Shown here piece after piece: positions 27,211 through 38,576 of a stretch of 43,755 nucleotides of DNA. Position numbers and translations under genes: made by a program. The stretch is from NCBI GenBank assembly GCA_029778075.1, contig JAKORA010000334.1:1-43755 (forward strand), given 5' to 3'. The number at the start of each line of letters is the position of its first letter. Within the stretch, counting starts at the first letter, position 1. The stretch is from Bacillota bacterium. GTDB lineage: Bacteria > Bacillota > Dethiobacteria > DTU022 > UBA8154. The notes below the pieces were generated by a model, which saw only the letters and a program-made list of their open reading frames with translations, made no database searches and was not told the origin of the DNA.

Positions 27211-28836
<1,626 letters not shown>

Positions 28837-28862
28837 TCACAATAACCCTCCTTGTTTGGTAT

Positions 28863-28888
28863 TATATTAGGTAACTATATTAGGTAAC
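28863..28888. repeat. 13-bp tandem duplication in the groES-groEL spacer
   Basis: TATATTAGGTAAC twice. Confidence 0.7.
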
Positions 28889-28954
28889 TCCTGAAAAAAA
28901 ATTCAATCTGGGTTAATTTAAATACAAAACTAAGTGGACTCTGTTTTTAAGCTT

Positions 28955-29242
28955 TTATACATAAACAGCCAAAATGTCGTCCTGGCGTAAAATGAGGTAC
29001 TCTTCGTCACCAATCTTGATTTCTGTGCCGGCATACTTGGAAAAAACAACCTTGTCGCCGACTTTAACGTCCATTTGCACTTTTGTCCCGTCATCAAGGA
29101 CCCTGCCTGGACCTACAGCTTTAACTTCCCCTTCCTGTGGCTTTTCCTTGGCTTTATCCGGAAGGACAATGCCAGCGCTGGTCTTCTCCTCCTTCTCCAG
29201 GACCTTGATGATTACCCTGTCCCCTAATGGCTTTAAGTTCAT
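28955..29242 (-). CDS. groS: Co-chaperonin GroES
   Basis: Motifs [23 protein letters not shown] and [17 protein letters not shown] precedes ATG 29242. Confidence 0.97.
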
Positions 29243-29279
29243 TCTGATACCTCCTTGTTGTGTTGTAAAATGTTCATTG

Positions 29280-29306
29280 TTAGCACTCATTTAAACTGAG
29301 TGCTAA
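29280..29306. promoter_or_regulatory. CIRCE element (HrcA operator)
   Basis: Perfect TTAGCACTC-N9-GAGTGCTAA upstream of groES. Confidence 0.96.
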
Positions 29307-29439
29307 TCAACCTTATCTAATATTATTAAAAATTGCCTTAGGATATCAACTCAAGCGTAACACTTATAAACAGCCATATTAACAGGTAGAGCTTGTTTGC
29401 TTTAAATTTCCTTCTAATTCTCCTTTTTCCTTTAAATTT

Positions 29440-31398
29440 TTAAGTACATCTTTTATTATATCCTTCCCCTAAAAAAATATGCTTAAGGTTGGGGAATTCG
29501 TGACTCTTGTGCGGTAAAGCTAGAGCCTTGGCAAAACGTATCTGAAAATCCGGTTCGGCCGCTGTTTCGATAAACTGTACCCTTCTGGCTACTTCCTCCG
29601 CTTCCTGCCGTTTTTTCAGGCTCAGGAGAGCCAGCTTTGCGCCATCCCCGGCAGCATTTCCTACAGCGTAAACATTTTCCAGGTTACAGTCGGGAATCAT
29701 CCCGATAACCATGGCATTCTCTTTATTGATATAGCTGCCAAAGGCTCCGGCCAGCACTTTTTTCTCCGGCTTTTTCCCGCCAGACTTCTCTATTAAATAT
29801 TCGGCACCGCAGTACATCGCCGCCTTGGCCAGCTGGACGGCACGCACATCTCCCTGCGTAACGGTAATATCCTTACCAATGGCAGTTTCATCTGCGTAAC
29901 AAAGCACATACTCCATTTTTCCATCGACACCCTTACGGATCCTGGGGCTGTCAATTTTCTTGTTGATACGCCCCGAACTGTCAATGATCCCGGCCTTAAA
30001 CATTTCCGCTATGGCATCTATGATTCCGGAGCCGCAGATTCCTTTCGCCAGGGGCTCGTCACCTTTTTTAAACCAGTCATCCTGCCCGATAACTTTAAAC
30101 TCGGGCTCTTTTGTCCGTGGATCGATCCTCACAGCTTCCACGGCCCCTGGAGCGGCACGCATACCGAAAGTAATCTGGGCGCCTTCCAGGGCGGGGCCGG
30201 TGGCACAGGAGGCAGAAAAAAGCTTTTCCCTGTTGCCAAAAACAATCTCCCCATTGGTGCCGATGTCAATAAGCAGTACCATTTGGTCCTGATTATAGGG
30301 CTCTTCGGCAATAAGGGCGGCGACATTATCAGCACCGATAAAACCGGCTTCAATCGGCAGCCAGTGGATATAGGCTCCTTTATTTATGTTAATACCCAGG
30401 TCGCGAGCCTTAAAATCAACACCTTGTTTAAGCGCCGGGATAAAGGGCACCCGGCCGATATACTCGGGATTGATGGCCAGGAATAGATGATGCATGGCGG
30501 TATTTCCGACGAGTACCATATCCACTATCTCTCGGGGGGACAAACCTGCCTCTTCTGTTACGTCCTGGACCAGAAAGTTAATACCATTAATAATTGCCTT
30601 GCTCAACTTCTCCAGCCCGCCCTCATTCCTCAGCGCATAGGTAATGCGGGAGAGAATATCTTCACCGTAGGCAATCTGTGGGTTCATCATCGATTTTACC
30701 GTAGGAGATTCACCCGTTCGCAGGTTACAGAGGTAGGCGGCTACAGAAGTGCTGCCTACATCAATGGCGATCCCCCAGAGATTTTCTTTCATCCCGGGGA
30801 AAACATCAATTATCTCCTTACCCTTCCATACGGCGGCTGTGACCTTCCAGCCGGCAGCGCGCACTGTTTGCGAGAGGTCTGGAACTATAGAATAATCAAT
30901 ATGCTCAATTCCCTTGAGACCGTATTTTTCCGCGACGGCATTCTTGATACGCGCGAAATCATCGGTCTGGTCTTCCAGTGTTGCCGGCGCCATCTCAATA
31001 TAGTAGCTGCCAACCGCGGGTTCCACGGCTATCTCCCTGTCTTTTCCGGTCTTCCTGATCACCTGCCGGGCACCCCGGGATTCTTCAGGAAGGTAAACAA
31101 GAACATTGCCGCGCACTTCAGCGCAGCAGGCCAGCCTGTAATTGCCGGCCAGTTCATAATCCTCCAGCTTTTCTTTCTCGGCATCCGTGAGAGGAGAAAG
31201 GTTGCTTGCTTTTGATTCAATACCGATCTTTTCAAAAAAACCTTCTTCAATTTTTACTTTACACTTACCGCAACTGTGTGCTCCCCCGCAGGGCGATTCT
31301 ATATCCACTCCCAACTCGCGGGCCGCCGCCAGGAGGGTCTTCCCTTCATCAACGATTCCCCGCCTGCCGGAAGGTTGAAAGACAACAACATATCCCAT
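29440..31398 (-). CDS. RACo/ASKHA-domain corrinoid reductive activator-like protein with N-terminal [2Fe-2S] ferredoxin
   Basis: Fe-S motif CGGAHSCGKC..RLACC and motifs IAIDVGSTS, IDIGTNGE, SCATGPALEG, GICGSG, LAGAFG and GNAAGDGA. Start at ATG 31398 after AGGAGG. Confidence 0.9.
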   Translation of the reverse strand: MGYVVVFQPSGRRGIVDEGKTLLAAARELGVDIESPCGGAHSCGKCKVKIEEGFFEKIGIESKASNLSPLTDAEKEKLEDYELAGNYRLACCAEVRGNVLVYLPEESRGARQVIRKTGKDREIAVEPAVGSYYIEMAPATLEDQTDDFARIKNAVAEKYGLKGIEHIDYSIVPDLSQTVRAAGWKVTAAVWKGKEIIDVFPGMKENLWGIAIDVGSTSVAAYLCNLRTGESPTVKSMMNPQIAYGEDILSRITYALRNEGGLEKLSKAIINGINFLVQDVTEEAGLSPREIVDMVLVGNTAMHHLFLAINPEYIGRVPFIPALKQGVDFKARDLGININKGAYIHWLPIEAGFIGADNVAALIAEEPYNQDQMVLLIDIGTNGEIVFGNREKLFSASCATGPALEGAQITFGMRAAPGAVEAVRIDPRTKEPEFKVIGQDDWFKKGDEPLAKGICGSGIIDAIAEMFKAGIIDSSGRINKKIDSPRIRKGVDGKMEYVLCYADETAIGKDITVTQGDVRAVQLAKAAMYCGAEYLIEKSGGKKPEKKVLAGAFGSYINKENAMVIGMIPDCNLENVYAVGNAAGDGAKLALLSLKKRQEAEEVARRVQFIETAAEPDFQIRFAKALALPHKSHEFPNLKHIFLGEGYNKRCT

Positions 31399-31511
31399 AG
31401 CACCGCCTGACCTCCTTTGTCTCCGCTCCACTTCTTTTCCCCAAATCCGGCCTTCTATAAAGCTGTGCAGGGCAAGAGCCCCGCTCTATTTAAGCCAAAA
31501 CTTTAAGCCCG

Positions 31512-32573
31512 TTAAAACTCCAGGCCCGCCATAGCCTTAACGCCGGCGCGGAAATAATGCTTCACCTCTTGCACCTCGCTGACAAGATCGGCGGCGTTAA
31601 TTATTTCTGCAGGGGCATACCTCCCGGTCAGGACCACATCTACATGTTCCGGCCGGTTGGCAAGCATATCGATCACTTCCTGAATGGAAAGCTGCCCGCG
31701 GTGCATAACAATGTTTATTTCATCAAAGATTACGAGGTCATACTCTCCGCTGCTCAATGCCTCTTTACCTTGTATAAACCCGTCTAAAACAACGCTTTGC
31801 TGATCATCAAGGAGTACACCGTCGGGAGACATTCTATTCCTTCCGGCCTGCACAACTTTAAAATCCGGTAGGTACTTTTGGATAGCCTGGATCTCCCCTG
31901 AACCGGGATCGCTTTTTTTAAACTGAAGCATAAAGACGCGGCGGCCCTGCCCGAGAGCCCGCAAAGCCAGGCCCAGCGCCGCCGTTGTTTTTCCCTTGCC
32001 GTTTCCTGTATAAACCAGGACCATACCCTTGCGTCTCTGCAGGGAACCGGCCTCTCTTTCTGTGGCGCAGTCGGAAACACCTCCCTGCATTAGTTCCTGG
32101 GCATGGGGAATTGCCGGCGCAATCACCTCCAGGCATTCCCTTACAGCCCGTGGGCTTCCGGGCAGGTTTACAATAAGAGTTTTTCCCCTCGCTCCGCAGA
32201 CGGCCCGGGAGAGCATGGCATGCGGAGTCTTTTTCAGACTCTCCATTCTCATGGCCTCGGCCAGCCCTGGAACCTCCCTGTCAATAACTTCCAGTGTTGC
32301 TTCGGGGGTAAAATCCCGGGGAGCAAGACCCGTTCCGCCGGTGGTTAGAACAAGATCGACCTTTAGTTGGGCCTCCATTTTAATCAGTTCTGTCCGAATA
32401 GTTTCCTTGTCATCGGGAACGACACCGTAATAGGCTACCTCCCACCCATTGGAGCGGACGATCTCTTCAATTACCTTGCCGCTGAGATCTTCTCTTTCGC
32501 CTTTTGAGCTACGGTCGCTGATCGTTAAAACGGCTACCTGTATCCGGCGTGCGTTTGTCCGGTTTTCTTTCAT
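31512..32573 (-). CDS. Fusion of MogA/MoaB molybdopterin adenylyltransferase (N-terminal) and CobO/BtuR corrinoid adenosyltransferase (C-terminal)
   Basis: N half: VLTISDR, TTGGTGLAPRDFTPEAT, NLPGSP. C half: VYTGNGKGKTTAALG, IFDEIN, VVLTGR, ADLVSEV..KHYF..GLEF. Both lie in one open frame. Confidence 0.88.
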   Translation of the reverse strand: MKENRTNARRIQVAVLTISDRSSKGEREDLSGKVIEEIVRSNGWEVAYYGVVPDDKETIRTELIKMEAQLKVDLVLTTGGTGLAPRDFTPEATLEVIDREVPGLAEAMRMESLKKTPHAMLSRAVCGARGKTLIVNLPGSPRAVRECLEVIAPAIPHAQELMQGGVSDCATEREAGSLQRRKGMVLVYTGNGKGKTTAALGLALRALGQGRRVFMLQFKKSDPGSGEIQAIQKYLPDFKVVQAGRNRMSPDGVLLDDQQSVVLDGFIQGKEALSSGEYDLVIFDEINIVMHRGQLSIQEVIDMLANRPEHVDVVLTGRYAPAEIINAADLVSEVQEVKHYFRAGVKAMAGLEF

Positions 32574-32596
32574 CAAATATCACCTCGTTAAAATGA

Positions 32597-33560
32597 AATG
32601 GAGCAGCGATTTGCTGTAGGCGGAGCTCCGGGGTTTTGGCTCGTAAAGTTCTACGGCTTGCTTGAGTCCCCGACGACCTCCCCGGCCAATTCCCATTAGG
32701 TGGGGGTGGCGAAGGTTAGTGCTCGCTTCAGGGTTCGCTTGAGGCAGGTTTTACAGCTCAGCTCGGGCTTTCGATTGGCCTTCCCGGCAGAGCTCACCTC
32801 CATGTTCGCGCTGCCGGCGGCGGACGTCCGTGTCCGCCGGGCTATCTCAAGCCCTTGCTTCGCTGAACCTGCATGCTCAAACTGCACATTCCGCTCACCA
32901 CAACCTTGCGCCACCCCTGCGGGACATGAAACGGGTTCTAAATAAGGGTATTTTTATCGGTTTTTGAGTCAGCAAGGTCGTCTTCGGCCTTCGCTTCGCC
33001 GTGAACTTTTTGACTTCGCTCCACAAGTCGCTCTCGCCAACAGCAAATCGCTGCTTCCCTACCAACAGTAGCAGGGGCTAAACGAGAAAAACAAGAAGCT
33101 ATGACAAGGGCATTTATGTCTGCCGGATCATCTTCAAGCCCTCGCTTCGCTGAACCTGCAGACTCAAGCTGCACATTCCGCTCACCACAACCTTGCACCA
33201 CCCCTGCGAGGCATGAAACGGGTTCTAAGCAAGGCTATTTTCATCGTTTTTTGAGTCAGCAAGACTGGCTGCCGACATCCATGTCAGCAGGGTCGTCTCC
33301 GGCCTTCGCTTCACCGTGAACTTTATGTCTTCGCTCCACAAGTCGCTCTCGCCAACAGCAAATCGCTGCTTTCCTACGAACGGTAGCAGGGGCTAAACGA
33401 GAAAACTAATAAGCAACAATGGCAGACGTGTCCGCCGGGCCATCTTTAAGCCCTCACTTCACTGAACCTGCCGGCTCAAGCTGCACATTCTGCTCGCCAC
33501 AACTTTACACTATCCCTGCGGAACATGGCTCAAAATAGGCTATTTTCATCCGTTTTGTGC
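32597..33560. repeat. Composite repeat array: element A interrupted by hairpin element B, then tandem partial units
   Basis: A arm at 32597-32696 and B at 32702-32917 (GGGGTGGCGAAGGTT / AACCTTGCGCCACCCC). The other A arm occurs at 32976-33059 and again at 33269-33373. Unit starts are at 32832, 33118 and 33430. Confidence 0.85.
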
Positions 33561-33569
33561 CGGTGGGTT

Positions 33570-35492
33570 CTAACCCTGACGCCAGATAACCTTCCCGCTC
33601 TGCCGTAGATCATAGCCCCCCATTTTCTCCACTCCCTCACGGAATGAAGGAGAGGCTATAACAGTCAAAAGTGCCTTGCACTGGGCTGAATTGTAGAAAA
33701 ACGCTGGAATGGCCAGATCGTATGACTCCCAGGCAAGCGGTATAAAATCTACGTTAAGAGCTTGGGCAGCAGCTCGGATTCCCAGTCCGGCATCGGCGCC
33801 TCCTGCGGCAACCGAGGCGGCAACGGCAAGATGGGTATATTCTTCACGCTCATAGCCCTTAATAAGGGCAGGATCGATGCCCTTCCCCCTGAGCATAAAA
33901 TCAAGATAAATACGAGTTCCCGCACCCTTTTGCCTGTTAACGAACACAACATCATTCCTGCTAAGATCTTCTATCCTGGTAATTCCCAGAGGGTTGCCTT
34001 TGGCTACTATCAAGCCCAGTTCTCTTTTGGCCAGATGAACCAGGACGATTTCCATATCGGGCAGGTATCGCCGTAAATAGGGAATGTTATACAGGCCGCT
34101 CTCAGGATCGAGCAAGTGCACGCCGGCCAGGTGGGTCTCTCCCCTTTTGATTGCTATTATGCCTCCCATGCTTCCTACATGGGCGGAAGATAGCGTGTAC
34201 CCAAGTCCCTGCTTCTGCAGGTGGTCGTTTAGAATATCAAGGCTGAGGTCGTGGCTCCCCAGGCAGACGATAGTGTTCTCAATTTCGGCGGGAGTACGCC
34301 ACAATTCAATGGAAACTGCCTCCCCGGCCTCAATGCCTTCCTTATCCTGGGGGATAACTGTGATACCGTCGGCACGCACCAGCGACATAGTTACCCCAGA
34401 ACCTCCCGGTAGCGGGGTAGCGACCAATTTATTGTTTACTTTTCCCACCTTTAGACGCAAAAACTCCTCTTCCTTTAATGAAGAGATAATGCGCCGGGAA
34501 CTGAAGGCTTCCAAGATAGGGCGTTGAGGGGGAGTCTGTTTCTGCCAGTTATACAGGAGAGGCATGACAAAGAGTTCCAGCGCCATATAAGCGGCAACGG
34601 GATAACCGGGAAGGCCAACTACCGGCGTTGAGCCGATCATAGCCAGGATAACCGGTTTACCGGGCTTTATGGCCACGCCGTGCACAAGTACCCGGCCAAG
34701 TTTTTCCAGGATACTAACGGTATAATCCTTGCGCCCTGCAGACGAACCGGCACTTATAAGCACCAGATCGCTCTTTTCCACAGCCTTTAAAAGGGCGGCC
34801 TCCAGTTTTGCCGGATCATCCTTTATGATCGGGAATCTGGTGGTTTCTGCGCCCCAGTCCCTAACAGCCGCAGCAAAGGTATATGAATTGGACTCCAAAA
34901 TCTTACCCGGTTCAGGTAAATCTACCGGCTCCACAAGCTCAGAACCCGTAGGAATTAAAGCGATCCGGGGCTTTTTAAACACTTTAAGGGTAAATATACC
35001 GCCGTTTATCAGTGCCCCAATATCGAAAGGCCTGATGAGATGGTAGGAAGGCAAGATCATTTCCGTAGCCACGATATCCTCACCAATGGAACGGACATGC
35101 TGCCAGGGGGTTGCCGGCTCCCTGATCTCTATTTCACGGGGGTTTTCCTTATCGGGGTAAAAAATATCTTCAATCATGATCACGGCATCACAGCCAGGAG
35201 GAAGCATCCCACCGGTATCCACGTAAAAGGCATTATCTTCCAGCCTGAGCCTCCGGGGAGAGGTCGGAGCAGCGCCAAAAGTATCAGCGGCTTTAACGGC
35301 CACACCATCCATGGCCGCAGCATGATAATGTGGTGACGAAATGCGTGCAAAAACCGGCTCGGAAGTTACCCTCCCCGCAGCCTCGACAGTTGCGATCTCT
35401 TCATCGCCCATCTTTCTGGCAAGAGCCGCCTGCAAGAAAATCTCCCGGGCCCTGGAGAGCGAAGTATTGCTAAGATAAATCTTTCTTTCCAT
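33570..35492 (-). CDS. moeA: MoeA fused to a C-terminal PBP (molybdate/tungstate-binding-like) domain
   Basis: MoeA motifs AAMDGVAV, VDTG..P.GCDAVIMIE, IKPGKP and LPGYP. C-terminal GSHD, VGSMGG and FVNRQKGAGTR. Confidence 0.9.
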   Translation of the reverse strand: MERKIYLSNTSLSRAREIFLQAALARKMGDEEIATVEAAGRVTSEPVFARISSPHYHAAAMDGVAVKAADTFGAAPTSPRRLRLEDNAFYVDTGGMLPPGCDAVIMIEDIFYPDKENPREIEIREPATPWQHVRSIGEDIVATEMILPSYHLIRPFDIGALINGGIFTLKVFKKPRIALIPTGSELVEPVDLPEPGKILESNSYTFAAAVRDWGAETTRFPIIKDDPAKLEAALLKAVEKSDLVLISAGSSAGRKDYTVSILEKLGRVLVHGVAIKPGKPVILAMIGSTPVVGLPGYPVAAYMALELFVMPLLYNWQKQTPPQRPILEAFSSRRIISSLKEEEFLRLKVGKVNNKLVATPLPGGSGVTMSLVRADGITVIPQDKEGIEAGEAVSIELWRTPAEIENTIVCLGSHDLSLDILNDHLQKQGLGYTLSSAHVGSMGGIIAIKRGETHLAGVHLLDPESGLYNIPYLRRYLPDMEIVLVHLAKRELGLIVAKGNPLGITRIEDLSRNDVVFVNRQKGAGTRIYLDFMLRGKGIDPALIKGYEREEYTHLAVAASVAAGGADAGLGIRAAAQALNVDFIPLAWESYDLAIPAFFYNSAQCKALLTVIASPSFREGVEKMGGYDLRQSGKVIWRQG

Positions 35493-35543
35493 TGAAATGT
35501 ACCTCCTGTATTACATTCCCGGTAACAATTTGCTTGTTAACCC

Positions 35544-35565
35544 GACCCCGTGCCCGGGCGGGGTC
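35544..35565. other. GC-rich hairpin between the two moeA genes
   Basis: GACCCCG-N8-CGGGGTC; no clear U-tract on the minus strand. Confidence 0.4.
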
Positions 35566-35637
35566 TTGAAGATCGCGGTGTTCTGCTCAGGTAGCTTGAA
35601 TTCTGGAAGGTACTCTGTCAGGCCTTTATTATGATGT

Positions 35638-36882
35638 TTAAAAAAGAAAAACTTTTATCTTGCTTCCCTCTAACATACCCTCAACATCACGTGGAATGAC
35701 GAAATATCCGTCCCCTTTGACCATGGTGCTCAACAGACTCGACCCGCCGAAGACAGGCCTGGCGCGAAGTGGCGCTTCCTTTCCGGAAGTAGAGGGTCCC
35801 TCGTGCAGCGTTACCCGTACATAATCTTCCCTGCCCCCCGGAGACGATAGATTTGTATCCAGAAAGGCCTCAACATACGGCGAAAAGGCAGGAAAAGCAG
35901 AAAGACCCTGCATCAAGCGCAATGCAGGCCTGACAAATAAAATAAAGCTAAACATCGCAGAAACAGGATTCCCGGAAAGGCCAAAAATCGGTTTGCCCCC
36001 ACTAAGCCCGAAAATGAAGGGCTTCCCCGGTTTCATAGAGACACCGTGAAATAGCACCTCGCCCCCGGGCAGTTCATTTATTGCCTCTACAGCAACATCC
36101 CTGGCACCTACGGAACTGCCACCGGAAATGAGGACTATATCGTAACGCTCCAAACTAGTGAGCAGCCCCCTTTTCAGCCCTTCCTTTTCATCGGCGATAA
36201 TGCCGCAATACTGCGGTTCTCCACCGCTCTCCAAAACCTGTGCCGAAAGGGCAAAACCATTAATATCCCTGATCTGCCCGGGTTTGGGCTGTTCACTGGG
36301 GGAGACAATTTCATCCCCGGTAGAGAAAATGCCAACCCTGGGCCGGGCATAAACCTCTAGCTCCATAATTCCCAGGGCAGATAAAATGCCGATATCCTGG
36401 AAGCGGATCATATGCCCGGCCGGTAAAACAAGAGATCCCTCCTGAAAATCCTCTCCTTCGCGGACGATGTTCTCCAGGGGAGCAGCAGGCCGGTATACAG
36501 CCACCTGGTTTCCCAGCACTTCGCAGTACTCCAGCATTACAACGCTATCGCTACCCGGGGGCAGCATCCCCCCCGTAGGAATAGACATGGCTTCACCAGT
36601 CCCCAGGCTGCCAGGTGGCTCTTTCCCCATCAGGATGTGGCCTTTTAACGTAAGCAGAGAGGGAATGCTTTCAGACGCCCCAAAGGTATCGGAGCTGCGC
36701 ACAGCAAAACCATCCATTGTTGCGCGGGCAAAAGGAGGGACCGCTTCTGTGGCCACAATCTCTCTGGCGGTAACTCGACCCAGCGAATCCGTGACCGGAA
36801 TGTTTTCTTTTTCTGTCCGTGTATCGTTTAATGAAGCTATGATACGTTCCTGGGCCTCTTTAACAGTGAGCACTGTTAACAA
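35638..36882 (-). CDS. moeA: Molybdopterin molybdotransferase MoeA (gephyrin-like)
   Basis: Motifs PPFARATMDGFAV, IPTGGMLPPGSDSVVMLE, STGDE, SGGSSVG, MKPGKP and LSGNP. Confidence 0.92.
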   Translation of the reverse strand: MLTVLTVKEAQERIIASLNDTRTEKENIPVTDSLGRVTAREIVATEAVPPFARATMDGFAVRSSDTFGASESIPSLLTLKGHILMGKEPPGSLGTGEAMSIPTGGMLPPGSDSVVMLEYCEVLGNQVAVYRPAAPLENIVREGEDFQEGSLVLPAGHMIRFQDIGILSALGIMELEVYARPRVGIFSTGDEIVSPSEQPKPGQIRDINGFALSAQVLESGGEPQYCGIIADEKEGLKRGLLTSLERYDIVLISGGSSVGARDVAVEAINELPGGEVLFHGVSMKPGKPFIFGLSGGKPIFGLSGNPVSAMFSFILFVRPALRLMQGLSAFPAFSPYVEAFLDTNLSSPGGREDYVRVTLHEGPSTSGKEAPLRARPVFGGSSLLSTMVKGDGYFVIPRDVEGMLEGSKIKVFLF

Positions 36883-36988
36883 TTAAACCACTCCACCGGT
36901 ATATTAATATGAAAATCAAAAATTTACATCCAAACTGATGGTGAAGCACATACTTCATGGGTGTCTAAAAGCAAATGCTGCCCTATTC

Positions 36989-37156
36989 TCAAAAACAACC
37001 GAGCTGGCAGTTTATAATCTTTATCTTCAAATCATTACAGAGTTTTCCCACCTCAGCTATAGCACAATTACACTCCCTGGCAATTTTAAAAGCCATCACA
37101 CAGGGGATCTTACCATTTGGAGCTGCTTCAAGTAGTTTCTTTTTAACTTCCTCCAT
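36989..37156 (-). CDS. 55-aa Cys-rich small protein ending CQLGCF (not in the ORF track)
   Basis: AGGAGGGAAAACA-ATG; translates to MEEVKKKLLEAAPNGKIPCVMAFKIARECNCAIAEVGKLCNDLKIKIINCQLGCF*. Confidence 0.8.
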   Translation of the reverse strand: MEEVKKKLLEAAPNGKIPCVMAFKIARECNCAIAEVGKLCNDLKIKIINCQLGCF

Positions 37157-37214
37157 TGTTTTCCCTCCTATTCGTATAACAACCAGTATAAAAGTATTGG
37201 CATATTCAAATTTT

Positions 37215-37243
37215 AAGTTACATCATTCTCCGCCTTTTGTCAA
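37215..37243 (-). promoter_or_regulatory. Possible sigmaA promoter for the small protein-moeA operon
   Basis: Minus strand TTGACA, 17-bp spacer, TAACTT (weak -10). Confidence 0.4.
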
Positions 37244-37360
37244 TTAAAGCAGCATTTTAAATGCGGGTGATTAAACCTGACATTAAATGAGGCAGATACG
37301 GCTATAATCTTGTTTTTTTATCTCATTGTCGGACAAACACAGGAAGCTGGTTGAAAGTTT

Positions 37361-37397
37361 AAAACTATTGAGCCCGGGAGTACCCCCCGGGCTCAAT
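37361..37397 (-). terminator. Intrinsic terminator after the oah-like gene
   Basis: Stem ATTGAGCCCGGG / CCCGGGCTCAAT followed by AGTTTT on the minus strand. Confidence 0.75.
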
Positions 37398-37424
37398 CCA
37401 TGTAGTATCTCTAAATTTAATTCC

Positions 37425-38576
37425 CTATTTCTGAGGCTTCGGCATAACTTCCTCAAAGAGTTCTTCATCAAAACGGCGGCCTTTGGCCAGCAACTGCCGG
37501 AGTTTAATGATATCGGCATCCCTGCTACCGGTCATCTTAGAGGTGTTAAATGCGGTCATACCCATATCGAACTCACCGTATACGCCGGCATTGGCGGCCC
37601 ACCAGAAGATAGTCTCAGCTTTGGTTCTTTCCCAGGACACTTTCTTCTGAGCTCTGATCATTTGCAGTGAATTCCCGACCTGTTGCGGATACAGATTGGC
37701 AAAAGTCCACACTACTTCGTCAACCGCTTGATCCAGGCGGGAAGTATCCCTTTCCAGCGTCTTGACGAGGGCTTTGGCCTCTTTCAACTCGTCACCGGTT
37801 TTAAATTCGCCGTATACAATTTGTCCATCTTCAATCCACTTGTCGGTTATGACTTCCGGGTTCCTGATAAATTTGCCGTCTTTCTTGAGCACGGGTTCAA
37901 CCCTGTGGATATAGCTTTTGCGCAGCATCTTATAAGCGCTCCACTGCTCAGCACAGGCGACGGTATTCCATACTGCATCTTCGATAGTCATGAAAACCGA
38001 TTTAAACTGAACAGCACCGCCCATGGCTGTAGAACCATGACGTGGCCCTACCTGACCAAAAGTGGCGGTATCGGCGGCAATAGTCAAATCGCAGCAGCCG
38101 CTGATCTCTTCGCCACCACCGATACTCATACCCTGCACCCGGCGGATAAAGGGTTTCGTTGAAGTCCAAACAGCATTAAAAGCATCCCAATATACCTGCA
38201 TATAAGCCTGGCAATCCAACGGCCTGCCAATCATATGTTCTGAATACTCGGGAACGTTGCCGCCCGTGCAGAAAAATCTGTCGCCTGCACCGGTAAGAAC
38301 AACGGCAACCACACTAGGATCGCGGGAGGCCAGTTGAAAAGCGCAGGCAGCTCCAGCTAACATCTCAAGGTTGTAAGAGTTCCCCTGCTTTTCGTTATCC
38401 AGAATTACATAGCCCACATACAGCCCCTCTACTGGTTCTTTTGTCTGGGGATTAACTAAAGGTCTTTTCTCATATACGGTACGCGGAGGAGCTGGTTTTT
38501 CTAAAAGGTCCCTTCTGACAGTCGTGTAGTCAAATATGTTTTCTTTTGGTGCTCTTGGAATCCAATCTAACGACAT
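37425..38576 (-). CDS. oah: 6-oxocyclohex-1-ene-1-carbonyl-CoA hydrolase-like crotonase (Oah/BamA family, divergent)
   Basis: VYEKRP, LDNEKQGNSY, TGAGDRFFCTGGN, GMSIGGGEEI, FGQVGPRHGS, GKFIRNPEVITD, IVYGEFKTG and C-terminal LRQLLAKG; 383 aa fits the family. Confidence 0.8.
   Translation of the reverse strand: MSLDWIPRAPKENIFDYTTVRRDLLEKPAPPRTVYEKRPLVNPQTKEPVEGLYVGYVILDNEKQGNSYNLEMLAGAACAFQLASRDPSVVAVVLTGAGDRFFCTGGNVPEYSEHMIGRPLDCQAYMQVYWDAFNAVWTSTKPFIRRVQGMSIGGGEEISGCCDLTIAADTATFGQVGPRHGSTAMGGAVQFKSVFMTIEDAVWNTVACAEQWSAYKMLRKSYIHRVEPVLKKDGKFIRNPEVITDKWIEDGQIVYGEFKTGDELKEAKALVKTLERDTSRLDQAVDEVVWTFANLYPQQVGNSLQMIRAQKKVSWERTKAETIFWWAANAGVYGEFDMGMTAFNTSKMTGSRDADIIKLRQLLAKGRRFDEELFEEVMPKPQK

Follow-up and report, generated by a model that had tools for sequence, protein, structure and literature searches.

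Does a reading frame that joins the enzymes of two different cofactor pathways represent a genuine gene with two functions, and, if it does, how did it come about? This question is raised by a locus in a 43,755-nucleotide (nt) stretch of DNA (positions 1 to 43,755 of contig JAKORA010000334.1, assembly GCA_029778075.1), hereafter the window, from one uncultured anaerobic-digester bacterium of the phylum Bacillota, whose genome we label G000. On the minus strand, an open reading frame (ORF) at 31512..32573 encodes a protein of 353 amino acids (aa), running from an ATG at 32573 to a stop codon at 31512-31514, in which a MogA-type domain (molybdopterin adenylyltransferase) is followed by a CobA/CobO/BtuR-type domain (corrinoid adenosyltransferase). 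We regard this gene, here called mogA-cobO, as a real, derived, lineage-specific fusion, the product of which is most likely a bifunctional protein with independently acting domains, and we would put the probability of this reading at roughly 0.8.

Two complete domains in one frame

The frame can be opened in two ways, either at the ATG or, in a longer version of 354 aa (31512..32576), at a TTG. The ATG is preceded, 7 nt upstream, by the motif GAGGTGA (32580..32586, minus strand), which we read from the sequence as the putative ribosome-binding site of the fused gene. A preliminary description of the locus had proposed that this single frame of 353 aa holds a complete MogA and a complete CobO domain, and full-length matches to two Pfam families bear this out. 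PF00994 (MoCF_biosynth) is matched over positions 1-144 of a profile of 144, with 129.4 bits and an E-value of 1.1e-37 (gathering score 26.6), and PF02572 (CobA_CobO_BtuR) over positions 2-172 of 172, with 185.3 bits and an E-value of 1.4e-54 (gathering score 25.7). Both matches are far beyond chance. A protein atlas search gave no usable match.

The MogA-type domain occupies residues 14-157 (32103..32534, minus strand), as delimited by PF00994, alignments, and the NCBIfam equivalog model for molybdopterin adenylyltransferase, NF006932. This last model is passed narrowly, with a score of 160.1 for the whole protein and 162.2 for the half alone against a cut-off of 158, while TIGR02667 (moaB_proteo) scores 105.4, below its cut-off of 222.4. 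The protein matches all 19 of the 19 invariant columns in an alignment of 31 MogA sequences (A2). Comparison with solved chains of Mog, MoaB, and the G domains of gephyrin and Cnx1 (2is8, 3k6a, 2f7w, 4xcw, 1jlj, and 1uux) aligns residues 9-169 end to end, with E-values of 1e-38 to 1e-47, and the motifs TTGGTG (32328-32345, minus strand), PRD-TPEAT, and NLPGSP (32151-32168, minus strand) are common to the MogA half and the solved Mog and gephyrin chains. What sets the fused protein apart is its CobA-type C-terminal partner, which is absent from these solved chains and from the listed database relatives. By homology, the N-terminal half would adenylylate molybdopterin for the insertion of molybdenum or tungsten.

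The CobA/CobO/BtuR-type domain comprises residues 182-353 (31515..32030, minus strand; PF02572 and alignments) and contains the P-loop GNGKGKTT (31983-32006, minus strand). Here too, every invariant column is matched, 33 of 33 in an alignment of 15 CobO sequences (A1). Residues 166-353 of the fused protein align with residues 13-196 of Salmonella enterica CobA (1g5r, 1g5t, 1g64, and 4hut; E 1e-30); the P-loop is identical in the two, which also share the DE, TGR, and KH..G motifs. One difference lies at the N-terminus, since the segment that is free in the S. enterica enzyme is replaced in the fused protein by the tether to MogA.

A second difference concerns the loop that follows a conserved glycine. 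CobO proteins of the mogA-linked subfamily carry G-K/R-N-K/R-M-S-P-D-G at this place (window residues ~247-255 in alignment A1), where distant CobOs have Phe or Trp. The 'gftw' of S. enterica CobA aligns with 'grnr' of the fused protein, in a loop whose alignment is uncertain; this region we take to hold Phe91 and Trp93, the aromatic pair that displaces the lower ligand of the corrinoid, and the aligned positions of the fused protein are both Arg. The altered loop may point to another corrinoid substrate, or to another route to four-coordinate Co(II). NCBIfam names this half cob(I)yrinic acid a,c-diamide adenosyltransferase. Judged by its family, the C-terminal domain would be expected to act in the B12 pathway, where it would adenosylate cob(I)yrinic acid a,c-diamide or another corrinoid. 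One relative of the same genus has, in addition to its mogA-linked copy, another gene of this CobO type on a different contig (G004:C73:10796-11329), with 76% identity to the CobO half in the window.

The junction and its ancestral state

In close relatives, the two genes are neighbors. Separate, adjacent, and co-oriented mogA and cobO genes are found in nine genomes from three genera of the same family (G002, G003, G004, G011, G012, G019, G024, G111, and G112), three of which (G002, G003, and G004) belong to the same genus as G000, and they are separate as well on the metagenome contigs L026 and L027. In further genera of this family, represented by G009, G018, G005, and G016, 38 kb separate mogA from the gene for this type of CobO, or the two stand on different contigs. 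The spacer between the mogA stop codon and the cobO start measures 26-101 nt in the six unfused loci measured, the start being inferred from a conserved purine-rich Shine-Dalgarno (SD) sequence followed 7-9 nt later by TTG or ATG at the same alignment column. Upstream of mogA, the unfused loci L003-L006 have the same moeA fusion gene as the window, described below. Long open frames in G012 (392 aa) and G019 (437 aa) were considered as further fusions and rejected, as translation shows stop codons between both genes. We also observed that the mogA and cobO ORFs of L033, from a record titled 'Desulfovibrio sp.', translate identically to those of L004 (G003); either the title looks mislabelled or the contig mis-binned.

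In the fused gene, the two domains are joined by the linker GGVSDCATEREAGSLQRRKG (residues 164-183; 32025..32084, minus strand), which is made up of the 3' end of mogA, the former ribosome-binding site of cobO, and the first cobO codons. An AlphaFold2 model of the fused protein (alignment A4) is of moderate confidence (mean predicted local distance difference test, pLDDT, 67.8; predicted template modeling score, pTM, 0.44) and was used solely for the confidence of the linker: residues 165-183 have a pLDDT below 50, as a linker would give, and residues 334-353 are also low.

The preliminary description had pointed to an SD-like motif in the linker, 8 nt before an in-frame CTG at 32042. The motif is there: AAAGAGAGG is read at 32059..32051 on the minus strand, eight bases follow, and then comes the CTG at 32042..32040. 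It now encodes Glu-Arg-Glu (32051..32059), and the CTG, which encodes Leu178 (32040..32042), falls in the junction alignment at the column of the cobO start of the relatives. This column holds CTG in all four fused contigs, as against TTG in six and ATG in three of the nine aligned unfused loci, and the same AAAGAGAGG also precedes the cobO start in the unfused loci L005 and L026. Because the same SD and a TTG or ATG start stand at the homologous position in relatives, the SD and CTG in the linker are true remnants of the place where translation of cobO once began. A further in-frame ATG (Met184; 32022..32024, minus strand) is not a conserved start, its position being CTG (Leu) in L022, CAG (Gln) in L023 and L030 (these three loci are fused), and Leu in all unfused relatives.

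What was lost is shown by L026, the nearest of the unfused sequences (77% protein identity). There, mogA ends in TAA and is followed by a 29-nt spacer that contains AAAGAGAGG, and then by ATG. At the fused junction, the mogA frame (...GAC TGC G) runs directly into CCACAG AAAGAGAGG CCGGTTCC CTG; the stop codon and the 5' part of the spacer are missing, while the SD and the codons for the N-terminus of CobO have survived. Of the earlier suggestion of a recent stop-codon loss, the substance stands, more exactly as a deletion that took the stop codon along with most of the spacer, while 'recent' needs qualification: the fusion, confined as it is to a species-level clade, is older than the split of the three known alleles (dS, the number of synonymous substitutions per synonymous site, ~0.19).

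We reconstruct the course of events as follows. The ancestor had adjacent, co-oriented mogA and cobO genes downstream of two moeA genes. A deletion then took away the stop codon of mogA together with the greater part of the spacer, without disturbing the register of the two frames. What had been the ribosome-binding site and first codons of cobO turned into part of a flexible linker of ~15-20 residues, and the former start is now the CTG of Leu178. The predicted product is one polypeptide of 353 aa with two domains that would fold and act independently, the MogA domain making adenylylated molybdopterin (MPT-AMP) and the CobA-type domain adenosylating cob(I)yrinic acid diamide or other corrinoids. 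Since MogA-type proteins form trimers and CobA forms dimers, the fused protein might assemble into hexamers, which is speculation on our part.

Distribution, selection, and alternative explanations

Among the 149 genomes of its class, G000 is the sole one with an uninterrupted match to both halves (0 of the 148 others), and 400 further sampled genomes of the phylum gave no match at E<=1e-75, which should be lenient enough to pick up a fused protein of moderate similarity. In a word-indexed search of 5.8 billion clustered proteins, the cluster of the fused protein itself (P0001, with 23 members on 11 contigs) alone has both Pfam domains among the best 120 of 5007 matches; the remaining MogA relatives among these 120 are single-domain proteins or are joined to MOSC, MobB, or MoaC. 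An exhaustive HMMER search of 1.84 billion representatives likewise returned no MogA and CobO protein among the best 150. When 25 long or two-stretch representatives were scanned with Pfam, PF02572 and PF00994 occurred together in none, the architectures being CobO-CobO tandems, MogA-MoeA, MogA-MobB, MOSC-MogA, MoaC-MogA, MogA-XdhC, and one MogA with Ni_insertion. Two-stretch matches of 335-344 aa were candidates for further fusions and were rejected, as Pfam shows them to be CobO-CobO tandems. These searches cover samples and top lists, beyond which distant fused forms could exist. Full-text literature searches, judged by titles and abstract openings, found no paper on a MogA-CobA or MogA-CobO fusion. 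The earlier remark that this is not a recognizable, described family thus holds for the databases and literature searched, and, on the sequences they cover, the fusion is lineage-specific, being restricted to uncultured digester Bacillota of one species-level clade.

Other multi-domain forms of MogA are known. MogA-MoeA (the gephyrin and Cnx1 type), MOSC-MogA, MogA-MobB, MoaC-MogA (NCBIfam PRK03604), and MogA-XdhC all follow the same principle, in that a small MogA domain is joined to an enzyme encoded nearby. The difference lies in the partner, which belongs to the molybdenum-cofactor pathway in those proteins and to the cobalamin pathway in the window protein. Among the top 150 representatives, a C-terminal CobA domain in a two-domain protein of ~340 aa occurs otherwise only in the CobO-CobO tandems (NCBIfam PRK07413 type; P0178, P0223, and P0251), whose N-terminal half is a second, degenerate CobA domain instead of MogA. 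Another partner from outside the molybdenum-cofactor pathway was seen in the representative P0191 (351 aa), where MogA is fused to the C-terminal part of Ni_insertion (PF01969, LarC-type).

Evidence that the gene is real comes from other assemblies and from diverged alleles. Across 31300-32640, contigs from three DNA runs of three studies (X1, X8, and X12) agree with the window letter for letter and without a gap. A metatranscriptome library (X15) gave a 203-nt contig over 31947-32149, again with 0 differences; this is no proof of transcription, and an unfused operon would give such a contig as well. Stronger evidence comes from two further fused alleles on contigs of metagenomes or metagenome-assembled genomes (MAGs), L022 with 95% and L023 with 96% protein identity, the protein of L023 being identical to that of L030 (from a record titled Firmicutes bacterium UBA3932). 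L022, L023, and L030 each have an intact frame of 353 codons, the same junction, and the same next gene as the window. The three fused alleles differ by ~5.7% in DNA; because the fused frame is intact in such diverged alleles, the fusion predates the divergence of the strains. By the Nei-Gojobori method (own script), the ratio of nonsynonymous to synonymous substitution rates (dN/dS) among them is 0.11-0.12 overall (dS 0.19-0.20), 0.02-0.11 for MogA codons 1-170, and 0.10-0.23 for CobO codons 183-353, values that are not independent because the three allele pairs share branches, and the 12 linker codons hold too few changes to judge selection. On these ratios, both halves have been under purifying selection since the fusion. 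The junction itself is not an assembly artefact.

One may nevertheless ask whether the frame owes its existence to an assembly or sequencing error, or to a recent lesion that inactivated one half. Several observations weigh against our reading, and some of them would speak for this explanation. G000 is a fragmented MAG (87% complete, 7% contamination, and 409 contigs), and any statement that a gene is its only copy is provisional. All three DNA runs are flagged as possible sources of the window and hence are not fully independent. The shared branches of the allele pairs count on the same side, and so does the one comparison in which the CobO half has a dN/dS above that of MogA (0.23 vs 0.02). 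The CobO half also falls slightly below its relatives on curated models, narrowly missing the cut-offs of TIGR00708 (160-163, with 163.1 for the half alone; cut-off 167.75) and NF004637 (178-179, with 178.9 for the half alone; cut-off 185), both of which are passed by all four unfused CobO relatives tested. Its membership in the family at the Pfam level stands, and its naming at the equivalog level is borderline. Finally, the 1315-nt metagenome contig L024 (protein P0002) has a rearranged junction: 157 nt of the mogA 3' end and the junction are duplicated in tandem, which shifts the downstream part out of frame and leaves two ORFs, one a full MogA with a nonsense tail, and the other the last ~50 MogA residues followed by the linker and CobO. 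The two parts of this contig resemble different alleles, and no such joint occurs in the contigs of the four runs compared; it could be a real variant, in which case the fused gene was secondarily re-split, or a chimeric assembly. Against artefact or decay stand the identical junction in contigs of three DNA runs and one RNA-library run, its recurrence with an intact frame of 353 codons in three alleles ~6% apart, dN/dS ratios of ~0.1 in both halves, and the presence of all family-invariant residues, so that we consider this explanation highly improbable, the least probable of those considered here.

Two further explanations accept the gene as real. One holds that ribosomes also, or instead, begin inside the frame, using either CTG178 with the SD that was kept or ATG184, so that free CobO is still made and the fusion is functionally silent. 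We think this unlikely, even if it deserves more credit than the others. The ancestral AAAGAGAGG is intact 8 nt upstream of CTG178, in the form found before cobO in L005 and L026; the window allele gained an ATG six codons past CTG178, where relatives have Leu; and an internal start would be the only source of CobO in the L024 variant, if that variant is real. However, CTG is a very weak initiator in bacteria, and its presence in 4/4 fused contigs, where 9/9 unfused loci have TTG or ATG, fits a start that is no longer needed. ATG184 is not conserved, and the AAGGG near it ends 1 nt before, too close for an SD. In L022, moreover, the relic SD itself is altered by a G-to-A change. Taken together, the sequence evidence leans against a need for internal initiation. 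The other explanation, to which we give little credence, is that the pairing of mogA and cobO, and then their fusion, reflect a real physical or functional link between MogA and the CobA-like P-loop domain, which might act as a MobB-like partner in the maturation of the Mo/W cofactor (pterin adenylylation or metal insertion), or form with MogA a mixed trimer-dimer assembly, or a trimer-of-dimers scaffold, that coordinates the supply of pterin and corrinoid. If this were true, the maturation of Mo/W-pterin and corrinoid cofactors would be coupled, and a complex that already existed would have been made permanent by the fusion. It would account for the adjacency of mogA and cobO in three genera, always downstream of moeA genes, and it would agree with the joining of MogA to the P-loop protein MobB in other lineages (P0158, P0200, and P0258), with the Lys/Arg and Met that replace the aromatic residue of distant CobOs in the mogA-linked subfamily, and with the gene for a corrinoid reductive activator that directly follows in the fused clade. 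Yet unfused members of this subfamily pass the NCBIfam cobA equivalog cut-off and are orthodox CobAs by appearance, the same two genes are parted in G009, G018, G005, and G016, and the substrates and reactions of MogA and CobO are chemically unrelated. G000, which has CobS and CbiB and no other adenosyltransferase, would also need ordinary CobA activity. A complex prediction for the MogA half against the CobO half scored 0.00, below the mark, a result that weighs neither for nor against binding. The reading that best accommodates these observations remains a real fusion with two domains that would act independently; the sequences suggest that it is translated as one protein, that each half has its enzyme activity, and that the halves are not mechanistically coupled.

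Genome context and significance

The gene content of G000 bears on whether both functions are needed. The fused gene is its only match to PF02572, and no PduO-type adenosyltransferase was found above the cut-off. PF00994 has six matches, of which that in the fused gene alone lies in a short, MogA-sized frame; two others in the window are moeA genes, and three on other contigs, identified by the PF00994 match alone, lie in open frames of 343-452 aa. CobS and CbiB are present, and because the late cobalamin pathway works on adenosylated intermediates, the organism would need CobA activity. Several small B12-binding proteins are encoded in the genome, methylmalonyl-CoA mutase was not found in it, and a gene for a tungsten-type aldehyde:ferredoxin oxidoreductase (AFOR) lies inside the window. 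The organism thus probably depends on this one gene for both the MogA and the CobA steps, which fits the purifying selection on both halves.

Downstream of the fused gene, at 29440..31431 (minus strand), a domain scan identifies a RACo-type reductive activator of corrinoid enzymes, with Fer2 and RACo linker, middle, and C-terminal domains, and this RACo gene is the next one in all fused loci (the window, L022, L023, and L030). Upstream, at 33570..35492 (minus strand), lies a gene of 640 aa for MoeA fused to a C-terminal domain of the periplasmic-binding-protein (PBP) superfamily, a gene that is conserved upstream of mogA in relatives, and beyond it, at 35638-36882, a second, plain moeA was found by domain scan. 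An Rfam scan of 28000-38000 at E<=0.1 gave no match, and hence no molybdenum-cofactor or cobalamin riboswitch was detected near the fused gene.

Some features of the surroundings were noted in passing. Between moeA-PBP and the fused gene, 32600-33575 is ~1 kb of non-coding DNA with units of ~130 nt repeated at a spacing of ~300 nt; relatives have just ~230-300 nt between moeA-PBP and mogA. The repeat is a dispersed family with 76 matches on many G000 contigs and no Rfam match. Contigs from the public runs break at 32640, where the summed depth jumps from ~10-23 to >1000. In the unfused loci L003 and L004, of the same genus, cobO is followed not by RACo but by an ORF of ~280 aa that by eye resembles a helix-turn-helix (HTH) regulator, and a GroEL-like ORF occurs further downstream in L002, L007, and L008.

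The combination of MoCF_biosynth with CobA_CobO_BtuR is a new architecture, not found elsewhere in the databases searched, and it was formed by an ordinary route, the fusion of operon neighbors. The locus offers a natural snapshot of the birth of a bifunctional gene: the sequences show what the ancestor had, what was deleted, the old ribosome-binding site inside the linker, a start codon that has decayed, and the purifying selection that came afterwards. It also calls for caution in 'Rosetta-stone' inference, as enzymes of unrelated pathways were here most likely joined only because their genes were neighbors. For those who reconstruct the pathways of digester bacteria, the practical consequence is that annotation with one name per protein would log one function of this gene, and either the MogA or the CobA step could seem to be missing from an organism that probably obtains both from a single polypeptide.

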